This document shows, piece after piece, positions 3,914 to 22,150 of a DNA stretch of 64,000 bases. The notes beneath the pieces are model-generated. The model worked only from the letters and a program-made list of their open reading frames with translations. It made no database searches and was not told the DNA's origin. The stretch comes from Treponemataceae bacterium (GTDB lineage Bacteria > Spirochaetota > Spirochaetia > Treponematales > Rectinemataceae). The position numbers and the translations under genes were made by a program. The DNA lies in the NCBI GenBank assembly GCA_963667725.2, contig CAXXHO010000003.1, forward strand, positions 512,001 through 576,000, in the 5' to 3' direction. How positions within the stretch are numbered: position 1 is the first letter of the stretch; each line of letters begins with the position of its first letter.

Positions 3914-3930
3914 GGAAGTCCTCCTCTTGA

Positions 3931-4640: not shown

Positions 4641-4682
4641 AACTCTTCTCCTTTGTGAACTTGTAGAAAGCTGTTTGAGAAA

Positions 4683-5063
4683 TCATGCTATGTACGCCTT
4701 CAGCTTTCTTCGCTCTCGAACTGGCATCAGGTCCCATTTTGTCCGCCGTTCTATCTCTGGGATGGAGATCCATGTTTCATAGGTTTTCAGCCACCATCGC
4801 CTGGGGCTATTACCCGCGTCGGGGACTCCGAATCCAGGCATTCGCCAGGGTTGTCGGAGGAGGGTGCTTCGGGAGACCCCTTGCTTCTTCGAAATGTCCG
4901 AAAGGCTGACTTTCCCTGTTTCGAGGACGGAAACCATGGCGTTTTCCAACCTTAGCAGCCGCTCGAGTGCTTCATTGAGGGCTCCGGCCATATCGCTTCT
5001 TGCATCAATCATGGGCAGTCCCCCTATCCAATTTGAGTAATCCATTTCTGGCGTTCTTTTCAC
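4683..5063 (-). CDS. HTH DNA-binding protein (excisionase/AlpA-like)
   Basis: VSLSDISKKQGVSRSTL HTH followed by PGFGVPD...RRWW wing. Confidence 0.6.
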   Translation of the reverse strand: MKRTPEMDYSNWIGGLPMIDARSDMAGALNEALERLLRLENAMVSVLETGKVSLSDISKKQGVSRSTLLRQPWRMPGFGVPDAGNSPRRWWLKTYETWISIPEIERRTKWDLMPVRERRKLKAYIA

Positions 5064-5415
5064 TGATGGAAGAGGAGTCCGGAGAGGCTTCGGTATCCGG
5101 CTTTGGTATAGCCAGGAGAGCCTTGAGGCGTTTCACCTCGAGGGCAAGGTCCTTAGCTGCTGTGATAACCGAGGCGTTGGCTAATGCTTCGATCGCCGTA
5201 CTGGTTGTCTTGCATGCGAGATGAGTATCTCCCTTGCTGGAAGATCCCGCGGAAAGTCCGAGATTGAAAATAATGCTTCCAAAAGCGTCTCCTGTAAGAG
5301 CGCTTGAAGGATCAGTTGTTCTGATTGTGCCATCCTCTGCCAGGAACCATTCCCCTGGGGACGCCCGTTCTACCGATGCCAGAGCATCGTCGATCCGTTG
5401 ATCTCGTGACCGCAT
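5005..5415 (-). CDS. Phage hypothetical protein
   Basis: SD GGAGG before ATG; 136 aa. Confidence 0.6.
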   Translation of the reverse strand: MRSRDQRIDDALASVERASPGEWFLAEDGTIRTTDPSSALTGDAFGSIIFNLGLSAGSSSKGDTHLACKTTSTAIEALANASVITAAKDLALEVKRLKALLAIPKPDTEASPDSSSISEKNARNGLLKLDRGTAHD

Positions 5416-5430
5416 GGAAACCTCCAGCTT

Positions 5431-5628
5431 TTAAGAGCTTGCTTTCGAGTCTTGTTCGGTTGGGCTCTGCTTTGAATCAGGAATTAGCACCAACCTATCA
5501 CCATCTCGGTACATGGCCATTTTTTGACCAGGTTGAAGATTTGTGTCTTCTACGTATTCTCGTGGGAGGGTAATTCCATAGCCGCGTCGGCCGTTCTTAC
5601 TAAGTCGATAGCGCCTTAGAAGTATCAA
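5431..5628 (-). CDS. AbrB/MazE/SpoVT-like DNA-binding protein in the Cro position
   Basis: RLSKNGRRGYGITLPREYVEDTNLQPGQKMAMYRDGDRLVLIP is an AbrB swapped-hairpin pattern; AGGAG SD before TTG 5628. Confidence 0.75.
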   Translation of the reverse strand: MILLRRYRLSKNGRRGYGITLPREYVEDTNLQPGQKMAMYRDGDRLVLIPDSKQSPTEQDSKASS

Positions 5629-5629
5629 T

Positions 5630-5680
5630 ATGTAGCTCCTTATATCCAATAGGCGTATTATTGGAGCAATAGAGCTACAT
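5630..5680. promoter_or_regulatory. Nested inverted repeat in the divergent switch region (candidate operators)
   Basis: ATGTAGCTC..TCCAATA-N7-TATTGGA..GAGCTACAT between the AbrB-like gene and cI. Confidence 0.5.
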
Positions 5681-5733
5681 TGTCAAGCAAATAATGTATT
5701 TATTTTTCTCTTTTTTTGGCTTAAAGTCAAAGC

Positions 5734-6417
5734 ATGGAATTTTATGAAAGAGTAAAGACTCTTGCAAAGCAAAATAGAATTACTATCGAAGGGGCTGCTG
5801 AGGCTGCCGGCATATCTAGAGCCCAGTACTACGGCTATAAGAAGCATGGGAATTTACCAAGAGCTGATGAAGCAGCGAACCTCGCAAAGGAATTAAATAC
5901 TTCAGTTGAGTATCTTGTTTTTGGAAAAGAAAGTACAAGAAAAGATATGCCTAGCGGTTTGGTCATAAGAGATGATAAAGGAAGAGAAATTGAAATCGAT
6001 AGTGAGCTATGTCTTCTGCCAATCCTTTCCCAGAAAGTAGCGGCTGGCATGGGCCAGGCCATGATCGACGATGTTGAGATCGTTGGTCAGCTTCCATTCC
6101 TAAACCGAATGCTTCGAGGCGAACAGCCGGCAGGCGCCAAGGCCCTCGAAGTCCGCGGAGACTCGATGACCGGCGTTAATATCTTCGATGGGGATATGGT
6201 TGTATTCATACCTGGAATAATTCGTGGCGATGGGATCTACGTGCTTGCCGTGGGCGATGAGCTGATTGTGAAACGTGTCGAGTTCGATGCAGTATCAAGG
6301 AAGATCCATATCATGTCCGAGAACCCTCGCTATAAAGATCGAGTAGAGTCCGCCGATGGCCAGACTCTCAGGGTTGTAGGGAAGGTGTTTGGTTGGGTAC
6401 ATGCGCATCCATATTGA
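5734..6417 (+). CDS. CI-like repressor: XRE HTH plus S24 peptidase
   Basis: N-terminal HTH; VAAG cleavage motif; VRGDSM catalytic Ser; VKRV catalytic Lys; SENPRY. Confidence 0.92.
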   Translation: MEFYERVKTLAKQNRITIEGAAEAAGISRAQYYGYKKHGNLPRADEAANLAKELNTSVEYLVFGKESTRKDMPSGLVIRDDKGREIEIDSELCLLPILSQKVAAGMGQAMIDDVEIVGQLPFLNRMLRGEQPAGAKALEVRGDSMTGVNIFDGDMVVFIPGIIRGDGIYVLAVGDELIVKRVEFDAVSRKIHIMSENPRYKDRVESADGQTLRVVGKVFGWVHAHPY

Positions 6418-6926
6418 TTACTTGGTTAGTCACTTATGTTACATTAAATGAAGATACCACTGCATTCTTTATATAAAGAAGTATCGTTTACCGGTTGACT
6501 TCTCCGAGAAGCCCTTTATCATAACAGACAGTAACACAACTGTTGAATTTCATAATTAGAAAACGATGCTCGGCGTACCCATTCTGTTTCGGCGAAGAGT
6601 TTGCCGAGTGTCCGTAATCTTCCTCTGAAGACTTTAGCCTTAAAAGGGCTATAATGCAGAGATATAATTGGTTGCCTTGAATCTCGTTCATCAACAATAA
6701 AAAAAGAGAGATGCCTATATTACTGTCGCTATTGAGATAAGGTATTGTTTGAGCTTAAAACATATGGTTTTATTCCCTTCCGCATAAAATACCATCTGTT
6801 AGTTTATACAGGTTAAGATCTTTTATGTAGAAAGAGAAGTAACCCATCCATAGAGAAGCAGTCAAAGATTTTATACTGGTAGATTTTTACTGATTTCACG
6901 TTTATTTATAGATCAACCCAATTATT

Positions 6927-6934
6927 GTTATATG
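6927..6934 (+). other. First crossover site GTTATATG (attI-like or remnant of a decayed attC)
   Basis: Exact reverse complement of CATATAAC (7670-7677) ending cassette 1; no attC palindrome recognised upstream. Confidence 0.6.
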
Positions 6935-6961
6935 GACCTCCGGGCAGTTAAAGGAGATTAT

Positions 6962-7696
6962 ATGGAATATCAAAAAAAATTAATTTTATTTCTAGACCTT
7001 CTTGGATTTAAGTCATTTATTAACGAAAAAACACAACTAGATGATAACTATGTAATGCATATACAAAGTATTATAAACCTAATCGAAACCATACGTGATG
7101 ATTTTTGTTTAGATGCAAGTATTAATCCTAATCAACGGCTTAGAAGTAATTTGTTCTCAAACTCTAGAATTACACAATTTTCTGATTCAATTATTATGAG
7201 TTCATTTTACCTAGTTGAAGATCATCTTAAAGAAACATTAGTTGATATAGTGGCAATGCAATGTAATGCTATTTATAGTGGTTTTCTTTTCCGAGGTGCA
7301 TTAACATATGGAGATATTTTACATACAGATAAATATTTGTTTGGTCCTGGATTTATTGATGCATATGAGATGGAGAGAGATAAAGCAGTATATCCTCGAA
7401 TTATTATTAGCGACTCGGTTATTAATAATGTCAACAGTACATGTAAGGCTTGTGATGATTTAATAGTCACCGATAAAGATGGAATAAAATACCTAGATAT
7501 TTTCAGTGGATTCAAATATAGATTTAACAGAGAATCATCAATAAGAGTAATGATTTCAGCATTGGAAAGAATAATACTAGAAGGTAAAAAAAATCAGAAT
7601 AAAAACATTCTAGAGAAATACTTGTGGCTAGAAGAAGAGTTGCTGAAATATAAAAAAAGAGAAAAAAGACATATAACAAATGCTTCAACCCTATAA
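6962..7696 (+). CDS. Cassette 1: class III nucleotidyl cyclase-like protein
   Basis: LFLDLLGFK, FSDSII, LFRGALTYG, LFGPGFIDAYEME, YPRIII motifs; SD AAGGAG before ATG 6962; stop lies inside attC. Confidence 0.65.
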   Translation: MEYQKKLILFLDLLGFKSFINEKTQLDDNYVMHIQSIINLIETIRDDFCLDASINPNQRLRSNLFSNSRITQFSDSIIMSSFYLVEDHLKETLVDIVAMQCNAIYSGFLFRGALTYGDILHTDKYLFGPGFIDAYEMERDKAVYPRIIISDSVINNVNSTCKACDDLIVTDKDGIKYLDIFSGFKYRFNRESSIRVMISALERIILEGKKNQNKNILEKYLWLEEELLKYKKREKRHITNASTL

Positions 7697-7795
7697 CGCC
7701 TTTTGTCATGGTTTTTGCTTGAAGATGACGCAAAAACCACGCCAATCTTTCGCTTCGCTCAGGAACAGGCGTTAAGGGTTAAGCCAATGCTAGAT
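7671..7795 (+). repeat. attC site 1 (R' mutated GTT to GCT)
   Basis: ATATAAC-AAATG-CTTCAACC...GGTTAAG-CCAAT-GCTAGAT, 125 bp. Confidence 0.85.
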
Positions 7796-7832
7796 GGATG
7801 CCTTCAGCGAATAAATTGGTAAAAGGGATTAT

Positions 7833-8687
7833 ATGACTAATGAACTTCTTGAATTACTTAGAATTGAAAGTAATGATCTAGATAAAGAATTTAGCAAAGC
7901 ATCAATAAAGGGTAAAGGAACACCACAAGAAATAGCCGACTTTAGAGAAGGTTACTTTAATAGCATTATAAGGAAGTACTTTCCATTTCCTTATAGAGTT
8001 ACTAAAGGCGGGATTATCGATACATTCGGAAATAAATCTGCATCAATTGATTGTGTTTTATGTAATCCTGCTCATCCATATACAATAGATAATTCAGGAA
8101 AATATTCTGTTTTACTTGCTGATGGTATTGATGCTGCTATAGAGATTAAGCCTGATATTAAGTCAAAGCACGAATTGATTAGAGGCTTAAGCCAAATAAA
8201 AAGTGTAAAAATATTACGTAGATCAAAATCACCAATTGTTGTTACAAGTAGGGTTACTGAAGAAATTATTGAGTACTCAAAGACTATCCCTTCATTTATT
8301 TATTCAATTGAAGCAAAGAAAAATATTGAAAATACATTAAATGAAGTTATTGAATATTATGTTCAAAATGATATTCCATTAGAAGAACAGGTTGACTATA
8401 TCGTAATTCATAATATTGGAATATTTGTTAATTATAAATATCAAGAGTTAAATAAAGGATACGTACCTGAAGGAATTCCAAGATATGGATACTTTTTTGA
8501 AACTTGGAACGAGCTTACTTTTGCTGCTTTCTTATTATATCTGAACCTTAGCTTTACAGCAGTTCCAGTTATAACGAGTAGTGTATTAGAACGTTATCTA
8601 TATTCTATCAAACCTATTAAAACTGGAAGGTTTAATTGTGAAGTATTTTGGGAAAAGGGGCATCTAACAAATGCTTCAACCCTATAA
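7833..8687 (+). CDS. Cassette 2: DUF6602-like PD-(D/E)XK nuclease-fold protein
   Basis: FRE...KYFPFPYRVTKGGIIDTFGNKSASIDCVL...AAIEIK; stop lies inside attC. Confidence 0.7.
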   Translation: MTNELLELLRIESNDLDKEFSKASIKGKGTPQEIADFREGYFNSIIRKYFPFPYRVTKGGIIDTFGNKSASIDCVLCNPAHPYTIDNSGKYSVLLADGIDAAIEIKPDIKSKHELIRGLSQIKSVKILRRSKSPIVVTSRVTEEIIEYSKTIPSFIYSIEAKKNIENTLNEVIEYYVQNDIPLEEQVDYIVIHNIGIFVNYKYQELNKGYVPEGIPRYGYFFETWNELTFAAFLLYLNLSFTAVPVITSSVLERYLYSIKPIKTGRFNCEVFWEKGHLTNASTL

Positions 8688-8786
8688 CGCCTTTTGTCAT
8701 GGTTTTTGCTAGAAGATGACACAAAAAACAAACCAATCCTTTGCTTCGCTCAGGAACAGGCGTTAAGGGTTAAGGCAATGTTATGC
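8662..8786 (+). repeat. attC site 2 (intact)
   Basis: ATCTAAC-AAATG-CTTCAACC...GGTTAAG-GCAAT-GTTATGC, 125 bp, near-identical to attC1. Confidence 0.9.
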
Positions 8787-8860
8787 GGATGCTTCGCGCA
8801 AGTAAATATTGTAGTATAGCAAATATTCTTAAAAACCTGTCTTAATAAAAGGCAAAAGAA

Positions 8861-10261
8861 ATGCCAAAACATCTATCATTAAAAATTTCAAATATGATAA
8901 TAAAGCTTTATCAAATATGGCCTTTTAATAGAGTTCCCGCAGCAAAAATTGTAAATAAATATTTGCATTCTGGAAGATTGTTAAATTTTAAATATAAAAC
9001 ATTAGATGAAATTCTAAATCTTGAGGCAATATGCCAATATTTTATTATTCCAATAGAAAAAAGGTTTAAGCTAATTAAGATTATTGATAAATTATATAAA
9101 AAATATGGAATAAAGCAGTTTGGAAATGATACAGATAGGTTGAAAGAGCAATTTGATAATTTATCATTGTCATCCGGTGGTTGGTCCAATTTATGTTATT
9201 TAAAGATAGATATTAATGGAAAAAATGGAGTTAATAGTGCTTTTATTAGCGTGGCACGGGTAGAAGAATCATTGCTTCTTGTAACAATTAAATCAATTCC
9301 CTCGGAAAAATTTAAATATAAGTATTATCAAGCAATAAAAATGCAAAACAAAGAATTTCCTATCCTTTATTATAGTTCGATAAAAGGCTATATAAAAAGC
9401 CCTGGATTTACAGATTATCTATATAATGTTCAGATATCATATGAATGCGATAAGCTAATTGATTGTTATAAAAAAATGTTAAATAAAGTATTCAAGATGT
9501 TAACAAAAGAATCATTAATTATTGCTCCGTTATCTATATTTATTTGTTATATAGATGGTCCACTTGCAGAAGACTATTATAAACGGGAACACCTTAAGTC
9601 ATGGAATAGGCTTGGGTTAATCGATGGAGAATCTTCAATAATTGGAGACGATGATAAAAAGTTTTATTTGATAAATAAGAAAAGTATTAAAAGTGACACT
9701 TTCTATTGCTTTGTTGATAAAACTAAAATGTTGTTAGAAGAGTTTTATTCTGAATACTGTGAAAAAATATTTTCATTACATGATGATATGCAAATTATTT
9801 TCGTATGGAATATTATAAAAGATAGTATTACTAATCGAATATATTCTCAACTTAACGATATCAGAGCAGATCTATATGAAAATGAGAATGGTTGGGAGAT
9901 ATTGAAGAATAAATACTTAAGTCCTTACGGAAATGTTATAAAAAATAAATATATTTTCGAAAGAATATTTGAAAATAATGGTAAAATCAGTGAAAGAGAA
10001 GCAAAATGGTTTGGAATAAGTACAATAAATATTGTTGATATATTTTCAAATAAAATTAAATTTACGGAATATATAAATAAGCAAATATCATATAAAACAA
10101 ATAGAATTAGTAAAATTATAAAAGATATTACTTTTGCGCTTGAAGGATATAAAAGCATAAGAAACGATCGTAGCAATTTAAAAATCCAAATTTGGTTATT
10201 TGCATTAACAATAATAACTGTATTAATTGGATTAATTCAAATAGTAATTGCGGTCGAATAA
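8861..10261 (+). CDS. Cassette 3: hypothetical protein with a single C-terminal TM helix
   Basis: 466 aa, very AT-rich; ends IQIWLFALTIITVLIGLIQIVIAVE; stop overlaps R''. Confidence 0.75.
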   Translation: MPKHLSLKISNMIIKLYQIWPFNRVPAAKIVNKYLHSGRLLNFKYKTLDEILNLEAICQYFIIPIEKRFKLIKIIDKLYKKYGIKQFGNDTDRLKEQFDNLSLSSGGWSNLCYLKIDINGKNGVNSAFISVARVEESLLLVTIKSIPSEKFKYKYYQAIKMQNKEFPILYYSSIKGYIKSPGFTDYLYNVQISYECDKLIDCYKKMLNKVFKMLTKESLIIAPLSIFICYIDGPLAEDYYKREHLKSWNRLGLIDGESSIIGDDDKKFYLINKKSIKSDTFYCFVDKTKMLLEEFYSEYCEKIFSLHDDMQIIFVWNIIKDSITNRIYSQLNDIRADLYENENGWEILKNKYLSPYGNVIKNKYIFERIFENNGKISEREAKWFGISTINIVDIFSNKIKFTEYINKQISYKTNRISKIIKDITFALEGYKSIRNDRSNLKIQIWLFALTIITVLIGLIQIVIAVE

Positions 10262-10341
10262 CAAATGCTTCAACCTTATAAATGCTTTGGCATGGCGTGT
10301 GTAAAACACCAATGCACAAACCACGCTAAGCCTTCGCTCAG

Positions 10342-12264
10342 CTGACGTTGTACAGCGTGTGGTATAATACAGTAAGCAATAAAGCAGCTTAATATATTAT
10401 ACTGACAACAAATAACTAAAAACGGACTGTACAAAAAGCATGATGCAAATGCGGTATAAGATATTTATAAATATTCGAAATAAAACTTTACAGATAAAAC
10501 ACTATGTTGTATAATTAGCGGTATAATGAACGTACGGAAATGTACCCTAAAGAATGCTCAAGGCGGTACCTATACGTACCTTCAACTTGTGCACAACTAC
10601 CGCGTCAAGGAAACAGGAAAGACCAAAACCAATGTCCTTATGAAGCTCGGACGGGAAGATCAGATCGAGCCTTCCTACATCCAGGCGATCATCAAGGCAC
10701 TGTCTGCGGTCTTAGGCGAATATCCTTCTGAAGTCCCCGCCGGATTTGACTTCCATTCAAGTCGGGAGCTTGGGGGCACCTGGCTTCTAGATGCCCTATG
10801 GAATCGTCTTGGCATGGCAAAGGCTATCAAAGGGCTTCTTAAGGAACGACAGTTCGCCACACCCGTCGAACGGCTCTGCTTTGCCATGGTTTCAGGAAGA
10901 ATACTCGCTCCGGGTTCGAAGCTTTCTCTTGAACACTGGGTTTCAAAGAAAGCATATATCAGGGATCTTGTGAACGTCGATGTTCACAATCTTTACCGGG
11001 CGATGGATCTTCTTGTGGAGTCGAGCGAAGAACTCCAGAAGCACATATTTACCGAAGTATCAAAGAATGCCCACCTTGATGTGGATCTTATCTTTCTTGA
11101 TACGACGAACACCTATTTCGAGACCGACGAAGATGCTTCCGGTTCAGGGCTTTTAAAACGTGGCCACAGTAAAGATGGACACCCCGAGCTACCGTTGGTT
11201 TCGATTGCCTTTGCGGTGACGCGTAGCGGCATTCCTATTCGCTGCTGGGTATTCCCGGGCAACACGAGCGACCAGACGATCGTCGAGCAGGTGAAAGGTG
11301 ATCTAGGACAGTGGAATCTTGGTCATGTCGTCATGGTCCAAGATGCAGGATTCAATAGTGCCGACAACAGAAGAATCCTTTTACGGGAATGCGGTGACTA
11401 TATCATCGGCGAAAAGCTCCGCGTTGGTACCGATGGCGCCGCGGTAGAAGCCCTACACCGGAAAGGGCGATTCAGGATCCTGGAAAGTGGCCTCGCGATT
11501 AAAGATGTCGTCCTCGATGCAGGGAAAGCCACGGAGCGCCGATTCATCATCGTCAAGAATCCGGAAGCCGAAACGCGCGACCATGTCATACGCGAACAAA
11601 TCGTCGATGCTACGAAGCGCAAGCTTGATGAACTGTCGCAGTATACGGGGAAAGCACACACGAAAGCGGCGTGTGCGCTACGCTCTCATTCCGCCTATGG
11701 CAGATACATTAGGCAGGATACGAAGGGTGTCTTGCACCTCGACACCGCCAAGATAGCCTCAGAGGAACTCCTTGATGGCAAGTTTCTAGTGTCGACGTCC
11801 AGCATGAAGCTGGATGCTGCCGATATTGTTGCCGGCTATAAGCAGCTCTGGGCCATAGAGCGGGTATTCAAGGATATGAAAAACACCTTGGATATTCGTC
11901 CCATATACCACCGACTTGATGATCGTATTCGAAGCCATATTCTTATTTGCTGGCTTGCCATGGTGCTGGTACGGTATGCAGAGAATATGGCGGACCGGTC
12001 GTGGTACCAGATTGAAAAAGTTCTGTCCGATGTTACTGCAGGGCTTATTGAGAGCGACAATGTAAGCCTCTGGTATTGCTCTGATATTTCCGACGAGGCG
12101 AAGGACATTTTCAAGCGCTTAACTATTGAATTACCAAAGAAAGTTCTTGCTACAGTAGCAAGAGATCCTGTTGCGGTATAAAAGATTTTCGACTGCAATC
12201 GTATAACTCTATTATTTATAGAGTATTAGCAAGATTTTCTATACCGCGCACTGTACAACGCCAG
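10342..12264 (+). mobile_element. IS1634-family insertion sequence
   Basis: TIRs CTGACGTTGTACAGCGTGTGGTAT / ATACCGCGCACTGTACAACGCCAG (20 of 24 match); flanks CTCAG / CTCAA resemble a target duplication. Confidence 0.88.
10526..12181 (+). CDS. IS1634-family DDE transposase
   Basis: YLQLVHNYR N-terminus, FLDTTNTYFE, RGHSKD, FPGNTSD, DAG, YKQLWAIERVFKDMK, RPIYHR. Confidence 0.92.
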   Translation: MNVRKCTLKNAQGGTYTYLQLVHNYRVKETGKTKTNVLMKLGREDQIEPSYIQAIIKALSAVLGEYPSEVPAGFDFHSSRELGGTWLLDALWNRLGMAKAIKGLLKERQFATPVERLCFAMVSGRILAPGSKLSLEHWVSKKAYIRDLVNVDVHNLYRAMDLLVESSEELQKHIFTEVSKNAHLDVDLIFLDTTNTYFETDEDASGSGLLKRGHSKDGHPELPLVSIAFAVTRSGIPIRCWVFPGNTSDQTIVEQVKGDLGQWNLGHVVMVQDAGFNSADNRRILLRECGDYIIGEKLRVGTDGAAVEALHRKGRFRILESGLAIKDVVLDAGKATERRFIIVKNPEAETRDHVIREQIVDATKRKLDELSQYTGKAHTKAACALRSHSAYGRYIRQDTKGVLHLDTAKIASEELLDGKFLVSTSSMKLDAADIVAGYKQLWAIERVFKDMKNTLDIRPIYHRLDDRIRSHILICWLAMVLVRYAENMADRSWYQIEKVLSDVTAGLIESDNVSLWYCSDISDEAKDIFKRLTIELPKKVLATVARDPVAV

Positions 12265-12355
12265 CTCAAGCCCGGATTTAAAAGCTAAACCAATGTTAGG
12301 TAGACCCTTCGAGTAGGACTATTAATTTAATTTTTTACACTAAAAGGATAGATTA

Positions 12356-13555
12356 ATGTCAGGACGATCAGCAACTGAAACAATTCGTGGTTTTTATTAC
12401 CAATTTGATTATTCAATTCTGAAAATACTCCGTTCTGACAATGATACAGTCAGCTTTGATATCGAAAAGATTGAAGACCTTGATATCAACACAGTTGATG
12501 AAACAACGGCGGTGCAATGCAAGTACTATTCTGGGACTGGATATAATCATTCAGTGATTGCTGAACCAATTCGAAAAATGATTAAGCATTATTCTCAGCA
12601 TCTAGACCAATCGATAAGATATAAACTTTATGGTCATTTTGCTTCAGGTCAGGATAAGCTCACATTGCCAATTGATATCAATTTTCTTAAAAGTTATTTT
12701 TTGACTTACAATCACAAAAATGTTAAGCATGAGTTTCAGATTGACGAATCTATCGATGATGAAATATTAGCAAGCTTTTTAGATGTATTGGATATTGATA
12801 TAAACGCTGCTACATATGAATCACAATTTTCAGAAATACAAAAGTTATTATGCAATTTGCTTTCTTGTACAGAATTTGAAGCCGATTCTTTATACTACAA
12901 TAGCGCGCTTCGTATAATTAAGGAATTATCTGTTCAAAGGGATGATTCAAAGAGAAGAATAACTAAAGCAAAAATGGTAGAGAGCATTTCCTGTAAGGAT
13001 ACCCTATTTGGGATCTGGTACATGAACTTGAAGGGGAATGAAAAATATTGTAGAATAATTAGGAAGAAATATTTTACTCAGCTTAATACATCTCCGTTTG
13101 AGAGATTTTTTATTATTGAAACTTCTCCGAGCACATCGATTCAGAATTTGAAAAGCATTACATATATGCTAGCTAATAAATGGTCAAAAATATCACGAAG
13201 AACAGTAGACACTTATTGCGCCTTTGTTTTATTTCCCCAATTAGGTGCATCAAATCTTAAGGAACTAAAAGTACAGCTCTATAAAGAAGGACTTCCAATC
13301 ATTGATGGATATCCTTTCCATGGATCTAATTTATGTACAGATTTTCTTTCGATCGAACCTAGATATGATAATAGAATTAAACTAAAATTCATAAATTCAT
13401 TAGGTGACTTTGCAGAATATCTTGATTATTCTACTCATCGTAAGGAAGTGTATCAATTTTTTACCTCGCAATCAGTTGATTTAGGTACGACAAACTTCGA
13501 TTTGCATATTTCAATTTGCTTGAAGAACGTCATGGACATATTGGAGGTATTATAA
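12356..13555 (+). CDS. Cassette 4a: DUF4297-family anti-phage nuclease-like protein
   Basis: RSATETIRGFYYQFDYSIL...IEDLDI...VQCKYY (Cap4-like PD-(D/E)XK with QxK); coupled to HerA. Confidence 0.8.
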   Translation: MSGRSATETIRGFYYQFDYSILKILRSDNDTVSFDIEKIEDLDINTVDETTAVQCKYYSGTGYNHSVIAEPIRKMIKHYSQHLDQSIRYKLYGHFASGQDKLTLPIDINFLKSYFLTYNHKNVKHEFQIDESIDDEILASFLDVLDIDINAATYESQFSEIQKLLCNLLSCTEFEADSLYYNSALRIIKELSVQRDDSKRRITKAKMVESISCKDTLFGIWYMNLKGNEKYCRIIRKKYFTQLNTSPFERFFIIETSPSTSIQNLKSITYMLANKWSKISRRTVDTYCAFVLFPQLGASNLKELKVQLYKEGLPIIDGYPFHGSNLCTDFLSIEPRYDNRIKLKFINSLGDFAEYLDYSTHRKEVYQFFTSQSVDLGTTNFDLHISICLKNVMDILEVL

Positions 13556-15330
13556 TGCCCGAAATAAATGCTGAAGTAGTTGGTGTTTTCCCAAGCAAAG
13601 TACGTATTTCTGTTGATAATATTAGTGATTTTAAGGTTGTTGAAGAAGAGCTTAAAATCGGATCGTACTTAAGGATCATTGGAGACAATGAAAATGTCAT
13701 TCTAATCGCAATGATCAATAGCTTCTCTATAGAGGCTACAATTGAAGGTGGCCGTAAGCATTTTATAGAAGCTTCTCCTTTAGGGATAATTACAGATGGC
13801 ATTTTTATTCGAGGAGGAGATTCTATCGCCATTCCTCCAAAGAAAGTTGAACCCGCAAAGAAAACAGAAATACAAGAGATATTTGGAAATTCCGTACCTG
13901 ACGCTAAAAAGTACATTTTTTCCACGCTAAATGCAAATCGATCAATTTCTGTTCCAGTTGATGGTGATAAATTCTTCAATAAACATATTGCCATCGTCGG
14001 ATCAACTGGTTCCGGGAAATCGCATACTGTAGCAAAACTCATTCAGAAAGCTCGCGATGCAAAAAATTCTGGATATTCTGGATTGAATAATTCTCATATT
14101 GTGATCTTTGATATTCATTCAGAATACAAATCAGCATTCCCTGAGGCTAATGTATTATCAATAGATAACTTGATTATTCCTTATTGGCTATTGAACAGTG
14201 ACGAGCTTGAGCAAATATTGCTTGATACTGGCGAGAGAGATAACTATAACCAAGCTTCAGTATTTCGAAGCTTGGTGACCGAAAATAAAAGACTAAAAAA
14301 TCCAACAGTAGATAAGGTTTTCTATGATAGTCCCCTTTTCTTCGATATTCAAGAAGTTCTCAATGCACTAACAAACATAAAAAATGAAACTGTAAATGCA
14401 AAAAATACAGACAGATATATGATTGTTGATCCTTCATATAAACTTGAAGCTGAAGGCAAAACAAATGTAGATTCAGGTATATTGTTAACTAACGATGAGA
14501 AAATGAGCAAATACTTTGAGAAGGTACTTTCATTCCACCCTAGAAAATCGCAGAGCATAACTTCAGGTGACTATTCTGATGGAACCTTGGATAAATTTGT
14601 TTCTAGGTTCCAAGCAAAAGTTTCCCAGGATAGACTCGAGTTTCTTTTTGGAGAGCATGCTAAATCAATATCCTTTTTAGATACTGTTAAGCAATTCATT
14701 GGATATGAAGAGAAAAAAGAAAAAAACGCTATAATTATAGACCTTAGTGGCGTGCCTTTTGAAGTCTTAAGTATTACCGTATCCTTAATTTCTCGTGTGA
14801 TATTTGAATATGGTTACCACTACAAGCGTTTTAGAACCAGAAAAGATCCATCTGAAAAAATCAATAATGACACACCAATTCTAGTAGTCTATGAGGAAGC
14901 TCATAAATATGCGCCAAGAAGTGATCTTGCGAAATACCGACCATCTTTGCTTGCTATTGAGCGGATAGCAAAAGAAGGTAGAAAATATGGCATTTCTCTA
15001 TTATTGGCTAGTCAACGGCCCTCAGAAATATCAGAAACAATCTTCTCGCAATGCAATAACTTTATAGCGATGCGTCTTACAAATCCTGATGACCAAAGTT
15101 TTGTAAAGAAACTCCTACCTGATACAATGGAAAGCCTGATTGATCAATTACCTGTATTAAGAGCTGGCGAGGCATTGCTAATAGGAGAAGCGGTTGTTAT
15201 ACCATCAATTGTAAAGATAGAAACATGTGATATCCCTCCTTCCTCAAATGACATCCCATATTGGCAATTATGGAAAGGTAGTTGGAAAGAATCTATACTC
15301 GAAACCATCGAGAAGGAATGGATGAAATAA
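13555..15330 (+). CDS. Cassette 4b: HerA/FtsK-like ATPase (DUF87)
   Basis: HIAIVGSTGSGKS Walker A, DIHSEY, EEAH Walker B, IAKEGRKYG, SQRPSE; TAATG overlap with the upstream stop. Confidence 0.92.
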   Translation: MPEINAEVVGVFPSKVRISVDNISDFKVVEEELKIGSYLRIIGDNENVILIAMINSFSIEATIEGGRKHFIEASPLGIITDGIFIRGGDSIAIPPKKVEPAKKTEIQEIFGNSVPDAKKYIFSTLNANRSISVPVDGDKFFNKHIAIVGSTGSGKSHTVAKLIQKARDAKNSGYSGLNNSHIVIFDIHSEYKSAFPEANVLSIDNLIIPYWLLNSDELEQILLDTGERDNYNQASVFRSLVTENKRLKNPTVDKVFYDSPLFFDIQEVLNALTNIKNETVNAKNTDRYMIVDPSYKLEAEGKTNVDSGILLTNDEKMSKYFEKVLSFHPRKSQSITSGDYSDGTLDKFVSRFQAKVSQDRLEFLFGEHAKSISFLDTVKQFIGYEEKKEKNAIIIDLSGVPFEVLSITVSLISRVIFEYGYHYKRFRTRKDPSEKINNDTPILVVYEEAHKYAPRSDLAKYRPSLLAIERIAKEGRKYGISLLLASQRPSEISETIFSQCNNFIAMRLTNPDDQSFVKKLLPDTMESLIDQLPVLRAGEALLIGEAVVIPSIVKIETCDIPPSSNDIPYWQLWKGSWKESILETIEKEWMK

Positions 15331-15335
15331 AAGAC

Positions 15336-15457
15336 GCCTAACAACTACTTCAACTGGATAATTCCTTTGGCACGGTTTGTGAAATCGCTTCGCTCTTTAT
15401 GCACAAACCGCGCCACGCCCTTCGAGCACGGACTTAAGGGTTAAGCGAATGTTGTGT
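15336..15457 (+). repeat. attC site 4 (apparently intact)
   Basis: GCCTAAC-AACTA-CTTCAACT...GGTTAAG-CGAAT-GTTGTGT; inner arm CGGTTTGTG/CACAAACCG. Confidence 0.85.
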
Positions 15458-15498
15458 AAACGCCTTCGGCGCTAAAGGAAATAAAAAAGGAGTAACGA

Positions 15499-15696
15499 AT
15501 GGATCAAATAATTAAATATTTTTCAGCAAATTATGAGTGGTTATTTTCCGGAATACTGTCAGGATTGATATTTTTTTTACTCGGTAACAAGCACGGATAT
15601 GATAAGGCAATAAAGCAGAAGCAAAAGGTTGGAAAAAACGGTAAAGGCATCCAGGTCAGTGGTAATTATACAGTAACAGGAAAAAGCAATGAATGA
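15499..15696 (+). CDS. Cassette 5a: 65 aa membrane peptide with C-terminal Q/N/G motif
   Basis: SD AAGGAG; hydrophobic WLFSGILSGLIFFLLG; tail QKQKVGKNGKGIQVSGNY. Confidence 0.75.
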   Translation: MDQIIKYFSANYEWLFSGILSGLIFFLLGNKHGYDKAIKQKQKVGKNGKGIQVSGNYTVTGKSNE

Positions 15697-16528
15697 AAAA
15701 CAAAATCAAAAAGTAGGTGATAATTCAACTGCCATTCAAGTTAATGGCGATTACCATGCTGGACTTCCTTATGATCAAGTAAAATCAATTTTTATGGATT
15801 TATTTGAGCTAAACTTCCCAAGAATACAGACATTGGCAAAAGCAGAAGCCGATAAACGAGTTCAAGAATTACTTAATAATTTAAGACAGTCAATGGAAGC
15901 TAAACAAAGCAACATTGATGTATTAAAATTTACTGATCCAGGAATTCAAATTGAGATGCAGCAAATGATTACAAGTGTTGCCTGCAGAGGAAACAAAAGT
16001 AATATTGATTTGCTTTCAGAATTATTTACAACTATAATCGAAAAAGATTGCCCAGAAATAATTGAGCAAATCGCTGGTGAAACTCTTAAAATAATACCAT
16101 TATTAGGGAAAAAGCAACTTGATGCTTTATCCGTTATGATTTTAACATTTGAAGCAAGTGTGGAAATTATAACAATCGAACAAGCAGAAAATGTTTTCAG
16201 AGATACTATGCCATTTATACGTCATGCAGAATATATAACATCCGGTGACCTTTCCTATTTGGTGTGTGTTAATTGTATATCTCGAAAGTCAATTACTCAT
16301 GTTAATGTTGTGCCAAATATCATTAGATGTATTCCAGGAATGGACAAAACTGGCATTGAAGAAGTAATTAATCAATCGAAACAAAAGCGGTTGTTAAATA
16401 TTCTATCATTCACAGAGTACATGGGAAAATGTCAAATAGGGCGATTTGATTTATCTCCAGTTGGAAAACTGATTGGATGGCTTAATATACAAAGCATTTC
16501 TAAAATCGATATTAAAACGTTATTTTGA
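15689..16528 (+). CDS. Cassette 5b: LPO_1073/Vpar_1526-like protein
   Basis: N-terminal QNQKVGDNSTAIQ...GLPYDQVKSIFMDLFELNFPRI...FTDPGIQ recalls this family. Confidence 0.7.
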   Translation: MNEKQNQKVGDNSTAIQVNGDYHAGLPYDQVKSIFMDLFELNFPRIQTLAKAEADKRVQELLNNLRQSMEAKQSNIDVLKFTDPGIQIEMQQMITSVACRGNKSNIDLLSELFTTIIEKDCPEIIEQIAGETLKIIPLLGKKQLDALSVMILTFEASVEIITIEQAENVFRDTMPFIRHAEYITSGDLSYLVCVNCISRKSITHVNVVPNIIRCIPGMDKTGIEEVINQSKQKRLLNILSFTEYMGKCQIGRFDLSPVGKLIGWLNIQSISKIDIKTLF

Positions 16529-16531
16529 ATC

Positions 16532-16636
16532 GCACAACAACTGTTTTAAGCTGAAAATTCCTATTGGCATGGTTTGTGCTGTCGCTTTGTTCGGAACAAA
16601 CCACGCCAAGCCCTTCGGGCCGGAATTGAAGGTTAA
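16532..16636 (+). repeat. attC site 5, truncated (R' missing)
   Basis: GCACAAC...GGCATGGTTTG/CAAACCACGCC...GGTTAA, then unrelated palindrome in place of R'. Confidence 0.75.
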
Positions 16637-16693
16637 TCTTGGGATGGTACCTCCCAAGAAAAAATTCGATTGTTTATGCAATGAGAGTTACTG

Positions 16694-17323
16694 ATGAACT
16701 GCTTAAAGGAAAAAATGCTGAATAGAACTAACTCGAAAATTGAGATTGGATTCGTGAATGAACACACTGTAGAGTATGTTCTTGTTCAAAAACTTGTAGA
16801 AATTATAGGGAATATACCTCATGCTTTTCTTTTTCCTTACCAAACAAGAGAGGGAAACACAGTTTCCAGAGAAATACATAGAAATGATAATTTTAGTATG
16901 ATTGGAATATTTTCTAGAAGACCGAAAATTAGACTTGACCATAAAGAAGATATATATATAAAAATCAACCAAGAAATTATCGATTATTCAAATAAAGCAT
17001 ATACCTTTGGTATCCCTTTTATTGCAGGATGCCCAATAGCATCAAATTTTTGGGATCTTGGTAATAACATCGCCTGGTTTGATTTACAAAAAATGAAAAG
17101 AGAGTGCCTTATAAAAGTAAGCAGTCAAAGCTTAAGAAGTAATTCAAGTGAAGAATTGCTTACAACAAACAAATTACGAGATGTATTATTAAATAATAAG
17201 ACCATATTTAATATTACAAATGCAATGGATGCAATTAAATATTCTGTCAGCAAAATGAATCAGTATCGGTATTCACTATTCGGTCCGATTTATAAACCTT
17301 TTTATCTATTAATAAGAAAATAG
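16694..17323 (+). CDS. Cassette 6: hypothetical protein
   Basis: 209 aa AT-rich ORF between attC5 and attC6; no family recognised. Confidence 0.7.
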   Translation: MNCLKEKMLNRTNSKIEIGFVNEHTVEYVLVQKLVEIIGNIPHAFLFPYQTREGNTVSREIHRNDNFSMIGIFSRRPKIRLDHKEDIYIKINQEIIDYSNKAYTFGIPFIAGCPIASNFWDLGNNIAWFDLQKMKRECLIKVSSQSLRSNSSEELLTTNKLRDVLLNNKTIFNITNAMDAIKYSVSKMNQYRYSLFGPIYKPFYLLIRK

Positions 17324-17353
17324 TGACTATCATAATTTTATGGTAAACTCGTT

Positions 17354-17473
17354 GCCTAGCAACCGCTTTATCCTAATTCGCAATGAAAAGGTTTTCGTAG
17401 GTTTTGATAAACTATAAGTTTTCCGTATGCGTAACAAAGCGTGACGGCTTAAAAGTCAAGCTAATTATCATGA
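17354..17473 (+). repeat. attC site 6, strongly degenerate
   Basis: GCCTAGC-AACCGCTTTATCCT...GTGACGG...GTCAAGC; colinear homology with attC7. Confidence 0.55.
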
Positions 17474-17574
17474 TATAATAAATAAGAAATTAAGACATAT
17501 GGTCTAGATAATAGAATATAATAACTCTGCATTATTTGTTTTTACAGTATTATCGTTGTGCTTACGGGGAAAAA

Positions 17575-18387
17575 ATGTATTACAATAAATTGACTATTAT
17601 TCGAAAAATATTTGATGGTGGACAAAAAAATGTTTTTCTTGCGAATGATTCTAGTGACACAACTATAGTATATAAGCTTTGTAAACCGAAAAATGATTAT
17701 CAACTTGAGCGATTTAAAAGGGAGCTGATGTTTTTACACTCCCAACATAAATCTTGTTTTCCGTTTGTTATTGATTATCATATTGATGAAAGAACAAAAG
17801 AAATCGAAATAATTGAAGAGTTTATTGATGATGGATCATTAACCGATCGCTTGAATAATATCTGGACAGAGAATGATTGTGTTATTTTCCTTAAGAAAAT
17901 ACTAGAGCCCTGTATTGAATTATGGAGCAAGAATATAGTACATCGAGATATAAAACCTGATAATATAATGTTTAGAAAGAATGGCGAACTTGTGCTTATC
18001 GATTTAGGAATAGCTCGTTTCATTGACTACTCTTCAATAACTAATACCTTAAATATTATGGGTCCTTGTACTCCAATTTATGCAGCACCTGAGCAAATTA
18101 TTAATCAAAAAAGGTTTATCGATTTTCGCACAGATTTGTTTTCTATAGGCATAGTAGTTCTTCAGCTGTTTTTAGGTTTTCATCCATTTGATCCATGCAA
18201 AATAACTAACAGCAAAGCTGATATTATTCAAAACATTTTAGCGGGGGTTTATGCATCAGCGAAAAGCAAAAATTCTTGTAGCGAATACTTTAGTATTTTA
18301 ACTAATAAGCTGCTGAAAACAAGGCAATACCAAAGATTCAGTTCTGTCGATGAATTAAATAAGTTCATTTCTACAAACTGGGGGTAA
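17575..18387 (+). CDS. Cassette 7a: Hanks-type Ser/Thr protein kinase
   Basis: GGQKNVF, VYK, RE, HRDIKPDN, DLG, YAAPEQ, DLFSIG. Confidence 0.92.
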   Translation: MYYNKLTIIRKIFDGGQKNVFLANDSSDTTIVYKLCKPKNDYQLERFKRELMFLHSQHKSCFPFVIDYHIDERTKEIEIIEEFIDDGSLTDRLNNIWTENDCVIFLKKILEPCIELWSKNIVHRDIKPDNIMFRKNGELVLIDLGIARFIDYSSITNTLNIMGPCTPIYAAPEQIINQKRFIDFRTDLFSIGIVVLQLFLGFHPFDPCKITNSKADIIQNILAGVYASAKSKNSCSEYFSILTNKLLKTRQYQRFSSVDELNKFISTNWG

Positions 18388-18391
18388 GAAC

Positions 18392-19582
18392 ATGCTTTTA
18401 TTACATCAAACTGGTAATAATTACAAATGGAACATTCAAAGCTTTACTGAAGATCATATTGGTGACGGATTAATTCTGTCGCCAATAAATACTAGTTATA
18501 AAAATCTTGAAGCGTTACCAAAAGCAATTATAGAAAAATCTGTTTTTGACCCTCAATTATTAATGCCATCTAATGGGAATGGAAAACTTACAACATACCC
18601 ATATTTTCCTACTTCAATATTGCCTTCGTATAGATCTACTGATTATGAATCAATAAAAAAAGAAATTGCACGACAATATACTCAGATGATTATTAAGCTT
18701 GGATTTAAAAAAATTATTATACCAAATAGATACAGTGATATTGAATCCTCGACATATCTTGAAAACATACAAAGCAATTTTATAGAACCATATTGCAATG
18801 AAATTCCTTCATCTCTGAAGATAGCAAAATATTTAACTATATTCGTCAACAAAACAAGGCTTATTGATGATGAAGCAAGAGATACAATGCTTGACTGGAT
18901 AACAGGTCTTTCAGAAATAGATGGTATATATCTTATATTTGATATTAAACGAACAACAAAGCAGATAAAGGACGTAGATATTTTAGCCGAAGCACTGTTT
19001 TTTGTAAAATCAGTTGAATCATCTGGTAAAAGAGTTATAATCGGCTTCACGAATACAGAAGGAATTTTATTTTCTATTGCTGGGCCTGAAGCTATAACAT
19101 GTGGCAGTTATGAAAACTTACGTAACTTTAGTATGTCAATAAGTCGATTTGCTAAAAAGGAAAAGGAAAAAAAAGGTAGACGGGGACCAAACGCACGATT
19201 GTATAGTGCCGTACTAATACAATGGATTGAATATAACTATGTTAAGGCTTTAGTAAAGAATCGTTATAGCCGATTATATGAAATATTCGCTGATTCAAAG
19301 TATCGGCCCTTATTCTTTGAGCCAACTTATAACTGGCATTTTGGAAGATCGGAACTATATAAACATTTTTTCATAGAGATTGATCGACAAGTAAAAGACC
19401 TCCCAGATGATCTTGATGAAAGAAAAAATTATTTGCTTTCAGCTATAAAGAATGCAATTACTATTTATGAAGATATTGCTCAGAGTGGTATATTACTTGA
19501 TTCTGATAGTAATGGAACGCATCTCAATGGATGGTTCAATGCAATCACTATATATGATAGATTAGTTAGGGAGCGGTTATAA
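18392..19582 (+). CDS. Cassette 7b: hypothetical protein, possibly TIM-barrel/beta-protein-like
   Basis: HQTG, ILSP, FDPQ motifs; alternating beta/alpha pattern; 4 nt after kinase stop. Confidence 0.6.
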   Translation: MLLLHQTGNNYKWNIQSFTEDHIGDGLILSPINTSYKNLEALPKAIIEKSVFDPQLLMPSNGNGKLTTYPYFPTSILPSYRSTDYESIKKEIARQYTQMIIKLGFKKIIIPNRYSDIESSTYLENIQSNFIEPYCNEIPSSLKIAKYLTIFVNKTRLIDDEARDTMLDWITGLSEIDGIYLIFDIKRTTKQIKDVDILAEALFFVKSVESSGKRVIIGFTNTEGILFSIAGPEAITCGSYENLRNFSMSISRFAKKEKEKKGRRGPNARLYSAVLIQWIEYNYVKALVKNRYSRLYEIFADSKYRPLFFEPTYNWHFGRSELYKHFFIEIDRQVKDLPDDLDERKNYLLSAIKNAITIYEDIAQSGILLDSDSNGTHLNGWFNAITIYDRLVRERL

Positions 19583-20013
19583 TGTTTCAATCAGAGAGTG
19601 ATTTATCTTTTGCATTTAAAAAAATTTTACCGACTACACATTGGGCAAATACTGAAGTGTTCGAAGAGGTTGAAGGACTATTAGGCATTCCTGATTTTAT
19701 TCTAATTAAAAAAAACAGAAAAACAAATGTTGCAATTGGTGTTGAACTCAAGTTATCTAACTGGCAAAGAGCAATGAATCAGGCGTTTAAGTATAAAACA
19801 TTCTGTAATATGAGTTATGTTATAATGGATGATGCACATATTGAACCGGCAAAGAAAAAACTTCCTGATTTCATCCGTTATAATATTGGTTTGGCTAGTA
19901 TTGATGATAATAAACATGAAATAAAATATTTTTATAAGCCTATAATGCAAGAACCATATTCTGAAGAGCTAAACACGAAACTATATCAGAAGTTATTCGC
20001 AAGTATATATTAA
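19582..20013 (+). CDS. Cassette 7c: small PD-(D/E)XK nuclease-fold protein (MmcB/sce7726-like)
   Basis: EEV...GIPDF...GVELKLSNWQRAMNQAFKY; TAATG coupling. Confidence 0.7.
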   Translation: MFQSESDLSFAFKKILPTTHWANTEVFEEVEGLLGIPDFILIKKNRKTNVAIGVELKLSNWQRAMNQAFKYKTFCNMSYVIMDDAHIEPAKKKLPDFIRYNIGLASIDDNKHEIKYFYKPIMQEPYSEELNTKLYQKLFASIY

Positions 20014-20018
20014 CAGCG

Positions 20019-20140
20019 GCATAATAACCGCTTTTACCTTATTCGAATTGACTAGAATATTCATAGGTCTTGAAAAACCATTGGTTCTCTGTATGCACAG
20101 TATCGAGTGACGGAATAAAGATTAAGCGAAAATGTTAGGT
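20019..20140 (+). repeat. attC site 7 (R'' AAC to AAT)
   Basis: GCATAAT-AACCG-CTTTTACC...GATTAAGCGAAAAT-GTTAGGT. Confidence 0.65.
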
Positions 20141-20905: not shown

Positions 20906-22087
20906 TCAGCCTTTTGTAGCTTTGTTGGCTCGTTTGTCGCCGCGGTCTTTGTCGAGTATGTCTTTCACCGAAAGTCCCTCTTTGTAGACTGTTTCGTCAT
21001 CCGGATGCTGGTACCCCTTCGAAGTGACCGAACTCGCGTGGCCCATAAGAAGCATAAGGGAAGCTTCGTCCAGAATTTCTAGCTTGTATGTTCCAAAACT
21101 GTGACGGAGGTAGTATGGCGTCCAGGTGGAATCCATGTATCCCAAACGCTTCATTGCACGTTCGAAGCAATTTCCTATTGAAGCTTCCGACACCGGGTTT
21201 GATCGGCCGGGAGCCGTAAACACGAAGTCCATATCGTCGGCAGTCATTGTCTGCTCTTTCCATATAAGCAATTCCTGAACCGTTCGCTCCGAAAGATATC
21301 CAGGTCGAACAATCCCCGTCTTTGTGGTCTTTACCTTGCTGTTTGTCCCTGATTCAATCGCTGTCCGGATAGGAACGAAACGCTTCTCAAGGTCTATCTG
21401 CCCCCACCTAATCGCCCGGAGTTCTCCAGGGCGTGCCCCCGTATCATTCATGGCGAAGAAGAATGCAACATACATTGGCGAACCATAGAGCTTGATGGCT
21501 TCGCCATGGGTAGCCGGATAAAGTATGACGATGACCTCACGGGGGAGGGCAGACCGGGGCTTTTCTGGGGCTTTATTGTATTTGACCACTCCTTCAAGAG
21601 GGTTTTCCTTGACGAGCCCTTGCTGGCGCCAATAGGTGAACATTAGAGAAAGCGCATAGAGCATCTTGTTCCGCGTGCCGCGGGCGTATGGGGAGCCATT
21701 GATCCTGTTGAGGCTTTTTATTGTGATATTGATCTCTGACGGCTCAAGCTCCTGGATGTTACAGGCACCGAAGACCTTCAGAAAATGGTTCTCGAGGAAG
21801 CCTTGATAGATGGCGAGGGTGGCATCGGTTCGCTTCCAGCCATGTTCTACCTGGTCGCGATCCCACGCCCCATCCTTGTTGAAGAATCCAACAGCGAGTT
21901 CGGAGAAGAGGTAGTCTTTCGCTCTGCCTAGAAGAACAAGGTGATTTCTCGACGCCCATTTCACGGCAGCTTCCCGGGTGCTCTCGGGAGACATGAACCA
22001 TTTTCCGGGGGCATCGTCGTATTCTACGCGAAAGCGTTTCTTCCCTGGTATCCACTGCGTCTTGATAGCTTTTTTCGGTCTGGGCAT
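20906..22087 (-). CDS. Phage-type tyrosine recombinase/integrase
   Basis: TGARPGEL (R), KT, YYLRHSF (HxxR variant), LMGH, YQH; N-terminal arm-binding-like and SAM-like domains; adjacent to tRNA. Confidence 0.92.
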   Translation of the reverse strand: MPRPKKAIKTQWIPGKKRFRVEYDDAPGKWFMSPESTREAAVKWASRNHLVLLGRAKDYLFSELAVGFFNKDGAWDRDQVEHGWKRTDATLAIYQGFLENHFLKVFGACNIQELEPSEINITIKSLNRINGSPYARGTRNKMLYALSLMFTYWRQQGLVKENPLEGVVKYNKAPEKPRSALPREVIVILYPATHGEAIKLYGSPMYVAFFFAMNDTGARPGELRAIRWGQIDLEKRFVPIRTAIESGTNSKVKTTKTGIVRPGYLSERTVQELLIWKEQTMTADDMDFVFTAPGRSNPVSEASIGNCFERAMKRLGYMDSTWTPYYLRHSFGTYKLEILDEASLMLLMGHASSVTSKGYQHPDDETVYKEGLSVKDILDKDRGDKRANKATKG

Positions 22088-22150
22088 ATGTCATTCTGAG
22101 GCTTTGGGCAAATATTTGTCAATATAAACACATACTTTTTCACATACCCT

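Follow-up and report, generated by a model that had tools for sequence, protein, structure and literature searches.

An intI-less cassette array headed by a predicted promoter, a leader hairpin and an attI in a phage-derived element of a Treponemataceae bacterium

The DNA analysed here is a stretch of 64,000 nucleotides (the window; C3:512001-576000) of the Treponemataceae assembly GCA_963667725.2, which measures 4.22 Mb and was rated 97% complete with 6.3% contamination. It includes the right-hand part of an integrated element of phage descent, in which an array of integron-type cassettes lies between a gene for a CI-like repressor and that for a tyrosine integrase. The array extends from 6927 (cut as G|TT) to 20140 and comprises seven low-GC units, all in the same orientation, with open reading frames (ORFs) of 0.25-0.36 GC compared to approximately 0.56 in the phage early region. 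It is a CALIN, that is, an attC cluster without an adjacent intI (six profile matches and one eroded site), and neither intI nor an intI remnant was found anywhere in the element, so that the intI adjoining attI of a complete integron is absent. A previous annotation made from the letters alone (the sequence-only reading) had already placed the array between CI and integrase and had noted the lack of intI; the latter now extends to remnants, and the former is established by a second att core at C3:494782. The features that frame the array and precede it are the following.

21-5649, minus strand: in-window part of the phage early operon (AbrB/MazE-like, excisionase, tRNA-Ser, RusA, ParB-like), running left to a replication initiator and a DUF2292 gene at C3:505.4 kb
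5734-6417, plus strand: CI-like repressor (helix-turn-helix and S24 peptidase), 58% identical to the CI of phage L060 from IMG/VR
6495-6522, plus strand: sigma70-type promoter, the predicted cassette promoter; TTGACT-16-TATCAT, the -35 box nearly invariant in 20 aligned leaders
6563-6614, plus strand: leader RNA hairpin of LoaP type with a conserved core at 6580-6597, a U-G pair closing its UUCG loop and covariation in the lower stem
6635-6651, plus strand: second small hairpin, weak (z -1.35); the three other intI-less leaders have similar ones, judged by eye
6903-6930, plus strand: attI with crossover G6927|T6928; its R box GTTATATG is exactly complementary to the R'' of attC1
20906-22087, minus strand: tyrosine integrase of the element (phrog_1, not IntI) with catalytic R, R, H and Y motifs
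22201-22215, minus strand: 15-bp att core, the tRNA-Glu 3' end; the second copy lies 17.2 kb left of the window
22204-22275, minus strand: tRNA-Glu(CTC), the integration target

To place the repeats of the array, an attC profile was seeded with five of the window's unit ends and searched against the genome, non-overlapping matches at E<=0.01 being counted. This gave 263 matches (38 on C1, 169 on C5, 30 on C7 and 26 on C3), 237 of which form three arrays directly 3' of intI genes on C1, C5 and C7. The window repeats thus belong, as attC sites, to the same integron family as those of the host. The three intI genes all score above the TIGR02249 cut-off, so the host IntI that had been postulated to act in trans is available. 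The profile recovered six of the seven sites of the window, attC6 being missed.

7670-7795, plus strand: attC1, 96% identical to the best host attC, with a mutated R' (GCT)
8661-8786, plus strand: attC2, 93% to the best host attC; most intact of the array
10255-12301, plus strand: attC3, interrupted by an IS1634 copy at 10342-12264, whose transposase is at 10526-12181; the two copies of the 5-bp target repeat differ by one mismatch
15335-15457, plus strand: attC4, 89% to the best host attC
16532-16700, plus strand: attC5, which stops after L' (16636), and the right end of an IS30-family element (16637-16700)
about 17354-17470, plus strand: attC6, eroded, 69% to the best host attC; the weakest call
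20020-20140, plus strand: attC7, eroded, 75% to the best host attC; crossover G20134, with a cassette-start-like stub on its 3' side

About three of the seven sites remain nearly intact; IS1634 splits one and IS30 truncates another, and two are eroded. The R''-L''...L'-R' imperfect palindrome with a GTTRRRY crossover is present in attC2, attC3 (in its split form), attC4 and attC7. At attC1 the R' reads GCT, where GTT is kept in 225 of 229 host attC sites, and attC5 and attC6 have no R'. When folded as bottom strands, attC1 and attC2 are markedly stable (z -5.5 and -4.3), and in the minimum-energy fold of either one a bulged T and a bulged G lie six pairs apart. Folding is moderate for attC4 and attC5 (z -2.6 and -3.0), in which this arrangement of extrahelical bases is partial, and no better than that of shuffles for attC6 and attC7 (z -1.1 and -0.7). 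The sequence-only reading had described co-oriented AT-rich units with attC anatomy, which the sister sites beside the host intI genes confirm, and an extrahelical G and T on the bottom strand, which holds for attC1 and attC2. Its layout needs correction for the R' of attC1, and for attC3 and attC5, which insertion sequences (ISs) have split and cut.

Identity to the best host attC falls from the attI outward, being 96, 93, 85, 89, 80, 69 and 75% for attC1 to attC7 (rho -0.93, n=7; host median 96%). The notion that the array can be shuffled today is not upheld, most attC sites being damaged; shuffling is probably mostly past and the array is now decaying, and its attI could still accept new cassettes. 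None of the 11 cassette proteins has a homolog elsewhere in the genome, and the array was therefore not copied recently from part of a host array. A separate observation concerns IS1634, which produces 5-bp target repeats and is present in ten copies (that at window 10342-12264 and nine others on C3 and C5). Six of the ten adjoin an attC on one or both sides, each time at the same CTCAG/CCGAG position, which suggests that IS1634 targets attC sites.

On sequence criteria, the array begins at an attI that stands at the head of an intI-less platform made up of predicted promoter, hairpin and attI, hereafter called a dock. Eighteen attI sites next to intI genes in the family, and no others, served to train a matrix, which was applied to the 30,512 GTTR sites of the genome. 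The three host attI sites ranked first, followed by that of another intI-less array (E2b) and then by the window site at 6927, fifth with 12.5 bits; among 2,312 sites of array background the only one scoring above it was the E2b attI. The R box of cassette 1 pairs with the R'' of its own attC at eight of eight positions. This attI, which the sequence-only reading did not see, strengthens the option it had raised of a landing pad for host IntI. The 18-nt motif of the hairpin lies 347 nt upstream of the attI and the promoter ~60 nt further upstream, its conserved consensus across leaders being the evidence for the latter in this analysis. In all four intI-less arrays the hairpin and attI are 300-347 nt apart, and the spacer of the window did not align with those of the other intI-less leaders or of the host intI genes (z<=2.1).

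The hairpin combines an invariant bulged apex with a covarying stem. Two-sided changes occur in 10 of its 16 pairs, a number reached by 0 of 500 shuffles, though kinship of the sequences inflates covariation. Allowing at most one mismatch, the 18-nt motif has seven copies in the genome, located before the three intI genes and before the four intI-less arrays. The 10-nt apex occurs 27 times, and the seven copies having a promoter pattern 40-110 nt upstream are all integron platforms (random positions: 23/20,000). The same promoter and hairpin stand at the head of all three host intI genes and of the three further intI-less arrays, and also before cas operons of relatives and in the slot behind CI in L060. 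Within the family the hairpin was found in 22 of 69 genomes, and in three relatives' genomes it precedes cas6 or cas1 operons. In L060 it lies 146 nt after the stop codon of the orthologous CI (163 nt in the window), ahead of an AT-rich operon, and this similar distance ties the leader to CI. The best attI score in L060 is -5.3, so that this phage has the leader without an attI.

Rfam gave nothing credible for the leader at E<=10, and among 401 genomes of the phylum the exact 16-mer was present only in the source genome (G000). One-mismatch matches elsewhere were near control level, and hence give no evidence of the motif outside the family. A scan of viral sequences returned 13 exact matches, one in a leader context (L152, the same contig as L060) and 12 judged to be chance. 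From metagenomes 26 matches were obtained, comprising five before an intI-like ORF, one of the same leader at a contig end, three before cas1-like genes and 17 judged by eye to be chance; none of the 26 is an intI-less dock. A one-mismatch copy at C5:60.3 kb with an UpxY-like gene nearby was rejected as related, as it has no promoter and lies inside an ORF.

Two further observations were made on the hairpin in relatives. In one genus of the family it heads cas6 and cas1-cas2 operons (L188, L189, L190; L264, L266, L273), which are candidate LoaP-controlled CRISPR-Cas loci. In genus g20 (L192, L194, L196) an additional small gene is situated between hairpin and intI.

The 10-nt apex of the hairpin, CTGTTTCGGC, consists of the same ten bases as the core of the dfn leader hairpin of Bacillus velezensis given in the supplement to PMC12691694. 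The match is 10/10, includes the unusual U-G closing pair and makes the structure a leader hairpin of UNCG type. That article reports that the dfn hairpin is required for antitermination by LoaP and that LoaP occurs in Spirochaetota (PMC12691694). The host encodes a stand-alone LoaP-like NusG paralog at C3:1093681, for which the best family is NF033641. The best PDB match of this protein is 8f5g (E 1e-14), which is listed as NusG and which we take to be a LoaP-RNA structure. From these likenesses, the host's LoaP-like protein probably binds the hairpin, and transcription would then read through the array.

The att pair bounds an element of 39.4 kb and encloses the array together with the lysogeny and replication genes (CI, excisionase, RusA, ParB-like, replication initiator) and the integrase, and a similar terminator-like hairpin follows the copy at C3:494782. 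No virion gene was convincing among 27 element ORFs compared with PHROGs, which gave weak partial matches only. L060 (a linear record, 42% complete) has an orthologous early operon that continues into terS, terL and portal, unlike that of the element, which ends at the rep and DUF2292 genes. The HNH, terS, terL, portal and capsid proteins of L060 had no match in the 97%-complete genome, nor was Terminase_6N detected or a helper phage of L060 type found (tail and lysis genes were not searched genome-wide). These absences argue that the element, which by its gene content is phage-derived and integrated, is defective or helper-dependent. The term prophage is thus apt for integrase, att pair and early genes and not in a functional sense. 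In contigs of the probable source sample, which drop rare variants, no att or cassette-excision joint was seen, and the joints listed resemble attC repeats of other arrays.

Considering the above, our preferred reading, to which we assign a probability of roughly 0.6, is that the phage-derived element carries an intI-less integron platform in its post-CI slot, loaded by host IntI in trans one cassette after another, with the hairpin bound by LoaP for readthrough. A temperate phage would have carried promoter and hairpin after CI, expressing accessory genes from them, and an attI would have arisen or been recruited behind these. Host IntI would then have added cassettes singly in trans and in place, the newest in front, if promoter and attI are active as predicted. 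The LoaP-like protein would carry transcription across the cassettes by antitermination, with a possible benefit in defence, and the element would have lost, or never had, its late genes while ISs eroded the array.

A number of results weigh against this. The window attI scores 12.5 against 27-28 for the host attI sites, though within the leave-one-out range of 4.5-28.3, and the short pattern by which the training sites were chosen fits the window site too. With n=7, the decay gradient could also stem from foreign donors, and the C5 host array shows a weak gradient too (rho -0.21). Sequence 3' of the last attC resembles a cassette start (17/22 identical to host cassette starts), which fits capture of a longer block as well. 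Among the 29 family intI loci retrieved, no more than 14 showed the hairpin (13 located by pattern and one by model; some flanks end with the contig). The LoaP-like protein scores 118.7 bits, under the curated cut-off of 125, and its gene is present in 67 of 69 family genomes, so that co-occurrence with the hairpin cannot discriminate. No intrinsic terminator was called in the leader and no excess of terminators in the array, and attC sites are reported not to act as terminators. Two of the three intI genes are on small contigs, in an assembly with the contamination given above. Lastly, a second CI-hairpin-attI-array slot was not found in other genomes, and the hairpin model gave no further match in 23 related loci.

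The LoaP part of this reading may be wrong where the rest is right. The dock and its loading in trans would then stand, and the hairpin would stabilise the RNA 5' end or bind another factor. UUCG loops are common, and the near-universal occurrence of the LoaP-like gene beside a patchy hairpin, together with the lack of a terminator excess, would suit such a role. Known LoaP targets, moreover, are biosynthetic operons (PMC12691694). However, sequence-specific binding is suggested by an apex that is bulged and does not vary while the stem below it covaries freely, the agreement with the dfn core extends to its U-G closing pair, and the hairpin always heads long AT-rich foreign operons. We regard this alternative as rather unlikely.

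The principal rival to the preferred reading is capture of an integron front end (promoter, intI, attI and cassettes) as one block with later deletion of intI, which would make the array a decaying relic and no dock. Since the host order is promoter-hairpin-intI-attI, a single deletion yields the window layout, and the stub beyond attC7, the IS damage and the mutated attC1 agree with a decaying block. Set against this are the absence of an intI remnant, a spacer that cannot be aligned with host spacers and the recurrence of the 300-347 nt spacing in three unrelated leaders. In addition, the related phage L060 already has promoter and hairpin behind CI without an attI, and the proximal attC sites are 93-96% like host sites, the distal ones 69-75%. 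We consider a captured block unlikely.

A further possibility is that the 39-kb region is a pile of separate tRNA-Glu insertions, with the array belonging to an integrase-bearing island and its post-CI position being accidental. Four DUF2292-like repeats and two more cassettes are located left of rep, and the sister element E2, described below, has its platforms at the opposite end. G002, of the same genus, retains both att arms, and its identity breaks off ~110-115 bp inside either arm; the 12.3-kb remnant between them has the left cassettes (99%) and no CI, array or integrase. In G001 the integrase is 97% identical while nothing of window 1-20000 was found. Yet a single att pair encloses everything, with no internal att copy of at least 14 bp, one unitig covers CI, leader and cassette 1, and the leader lies at nearly the same distance from CI in L060. 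Such a pile appears improbable. At this tRNA-Glu, where a comparison of cassette content had been proposed, G001, G002 and G023 all carry inserts, and no truly empty site was found. Chance insertion by IntI at a secondary (attG) site without any platform (Loot et al.), for which the three host IntI genes, the experimental efficiency of attG insertion (bioRxiv 10.1101/2022.09.11.507474) and a leaderless group at C3:604 kb (score -13.3) could be cited, is very improbable and largely excluded by the attI rank of the window junction and by a promoter and hairpin spaced as in three other arrays.

The cassettes carry the following genes, including the defence cargo that had been expected from the letters.

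6962-7696, plus strand: cassette 1 ORF, 244 aa, no family; the nearest named atlas cluster is adenylate/guanylate cyclase-like (0.85, a lead only)
7833-8687, plus strand: cassette 2 ORF, DUF6602 / NucC-like nuclease
8861-10261, plus strand: cassette 3 ORF, ~460 aa, no family
12356-15330, plus strand: cassette 4, DUF4297 and HerA anti-phage system (NF042945, 447 bits, cut-off 300; NF042944, 923 bits, cut-off 850)
15499-16528, plus strand: cassette 5, a 65-aa membrane-like ORF and an LPO_1073/Vpar_1526 family protein
16694-17470, plus strand (including attC6): cassette 6 remnant, 209-aa ORF
17575-20013, plus strand: cassette 7, a Ser/Thr kinase, a 396-aa unnamed conserved protein and an sce7726-like protein (below cut-off)

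Among these is the adjacent DUF4297 and HerA pair, both above their NCBIfam cut-offs as in the HerA-DUF4297 anti-phage system (PMC11291478), from which cassette 4 differs in being a 3.2-kb integron cassette. The middle protein of cassette 7 has 86 homologs, and the kinase, this protein and the sce7726-like gene may form an undescribed defence operon.

Several other loci in the genome resemble parts of the element. Sister element E2 at tRNA-Pro (C3:1616.3-1656.2 kb; L026-L028) is bounded by a 44-bp repeat, and its early region is 78-93% identical and ends at the same gene as that of the window element. It has a different integrase and repressor, with 14 attC matches and two tandem promoter-hairpin-attI docks at its far end. 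Island E3 at tRNA-Ala (C3:337.3-364.4 kb; L024, L025), with a 48-bp repeat, has the same dock, four attC sites and type I restriction-modification-like genes. An isolated group of cassettes (C3:603.5-605.9 kb; L029) lies in core DNA; it has no leader, its junction does not score as an attI, and it looks like an attG-like insertion. The host IntI proteins are ~430 aa in length, with an N-terminal extension that weakly matches HARP (E 1.5e-4, below cut-off; L012:9701-10993).

Relatives of the CI were found in 8 of 69 family genomes; three of these (G019, G014, G077), as well as G023, found by its integrase, showed no attC or hairpin. A scan of the genome collection with CI gave three weak loci, and GenBank phages gave repressors at only about 30% identity. 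At the ParB-related viral locus L065, one weak match to attC was obtained. The G023 prophage, at the same tRNA, has a Beta-protein gene and a small partner in its int-CI slot (L019:9730-11356).

Within the element itself, the left end (L009:10038-12650; C3:502.0-504.65 kb) has two more cassettes, for a Fic protein and a beta-lactamase-fold hydrolase, with eroded attC sequence and without the leader hairpin, 99% identical in G002. The early operon contains, besides tRNA-Ser(CGA), another tRNA-like element (the two at window 3931-4014 and 4151-4223), which Rfam saw and ARAGORN missed, and Rfam found only tRNAs at gathering level in window 1-24000. It also has a phrog_4652 gene with no Pfam match (L009:15928-16548). 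CATACC-like repeats on both att arms (window 22090-22200; C3:494797-494911), retained in G002, are candidate arm sites of the integrase. At C3:504434 a tRNA-like match was discarded as a candidate att site, as it falls in the end of the hydrolase ORF.

CALINs in phages, including an attI-bearing one in a cryptic prophage, are already published (PMC9892861), so the main point of the sequence-only reading is not new. The Shewanella cryptic prophage M16-3 (Qi et al. 2023, PMC9892861) likewise has an intI-less cassette cluster starting at an attI in an inactive prophage, but virion genes and a complete integron, intI included, are present there as well, and the text consulted on M16-3 mentions no leader RNA. 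The window element has no intI, no virion genes were found in it, and its dock is present four times in one genome with conserved promoter and hairpin. As in the chromosomal integrons of Treponema type, in which intI is transcribed toward attI and cassettes (Wu, Doak and Ye 2013, PMC3607928), the attC and attI sites belong to the host family, while the platform of the window lacks intI and is in a mobile-type element. The attG/SALIN route (bioRxiv 10.1101/2022.09.11.507474) also has IntI building orphan cassettes outside its own integron, at sites that differ from attI, whereas the junction in the window has the score of an attI and is accompanied by a promoter module. Integrons have been described as stores of anti-phage functions (bioRxiv 10.1101/2024.07.02.601686), with which the window array shares defence genes in cassettes.

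Variable cargo of high AT content next to CI or the integrase, as in the accessory defence hotspots of P2/P4-type prophages, is also found in G023 and L060; the window slot would differ in being filled via attI/attC instead of homology. With the dfn/LoaP system of B. velezensis (PMC12691694) the locus shares the UNCG-type hairpin and its apex, a long 5' leader and a LoaP-like NusG paralog in the genome. It differs in its candidate targets (integrons, cassette docks, cas operons and a phage accessory operon), in an unlinked LoaP-like gene and in having no clear leader terminator. The compact promoter-hairpin-attI dock and the LoaP link were not found in the published work searched, and a literature search that covered few subscription papers found no publication connecting LoaP with integrons.

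New here are the tie of the dock to the phage CI slot, the related phage with a leader and no attI, and the age gradient. Qi et al. (PMC9892861) left open whether CALINs joined the prophage before or after it became cryptic; the attI, the gradient and the related phage suggest how prophage CALINs arise, and that they are loaded in place. On a broader and tentative view, which we rate below even odds, a core LoaP paralog would run an antitermination regulon for defence and acquired genes in this family (integrons, cas operons and phage accessory slots). Phage-derived elements would exploit it by placing an attI behind the post-CI LoaP hairpin, giving integrase-free, host-loaded and fully transcribed docks that move cassette sets between cells. 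In the standard model, expression is limited to promoter-proximal cassettes (PMC8876359; bioRxiv 10.1101/2024.07.02.601686). If the regulon exists, long arrays would be switchable as a whole and not silent beyond their first cassettes. A LoaP-type signal at integron heads would be a directly testable way around proximal-only expression, and would extend LoaP from antibiotic operons to phage defence.

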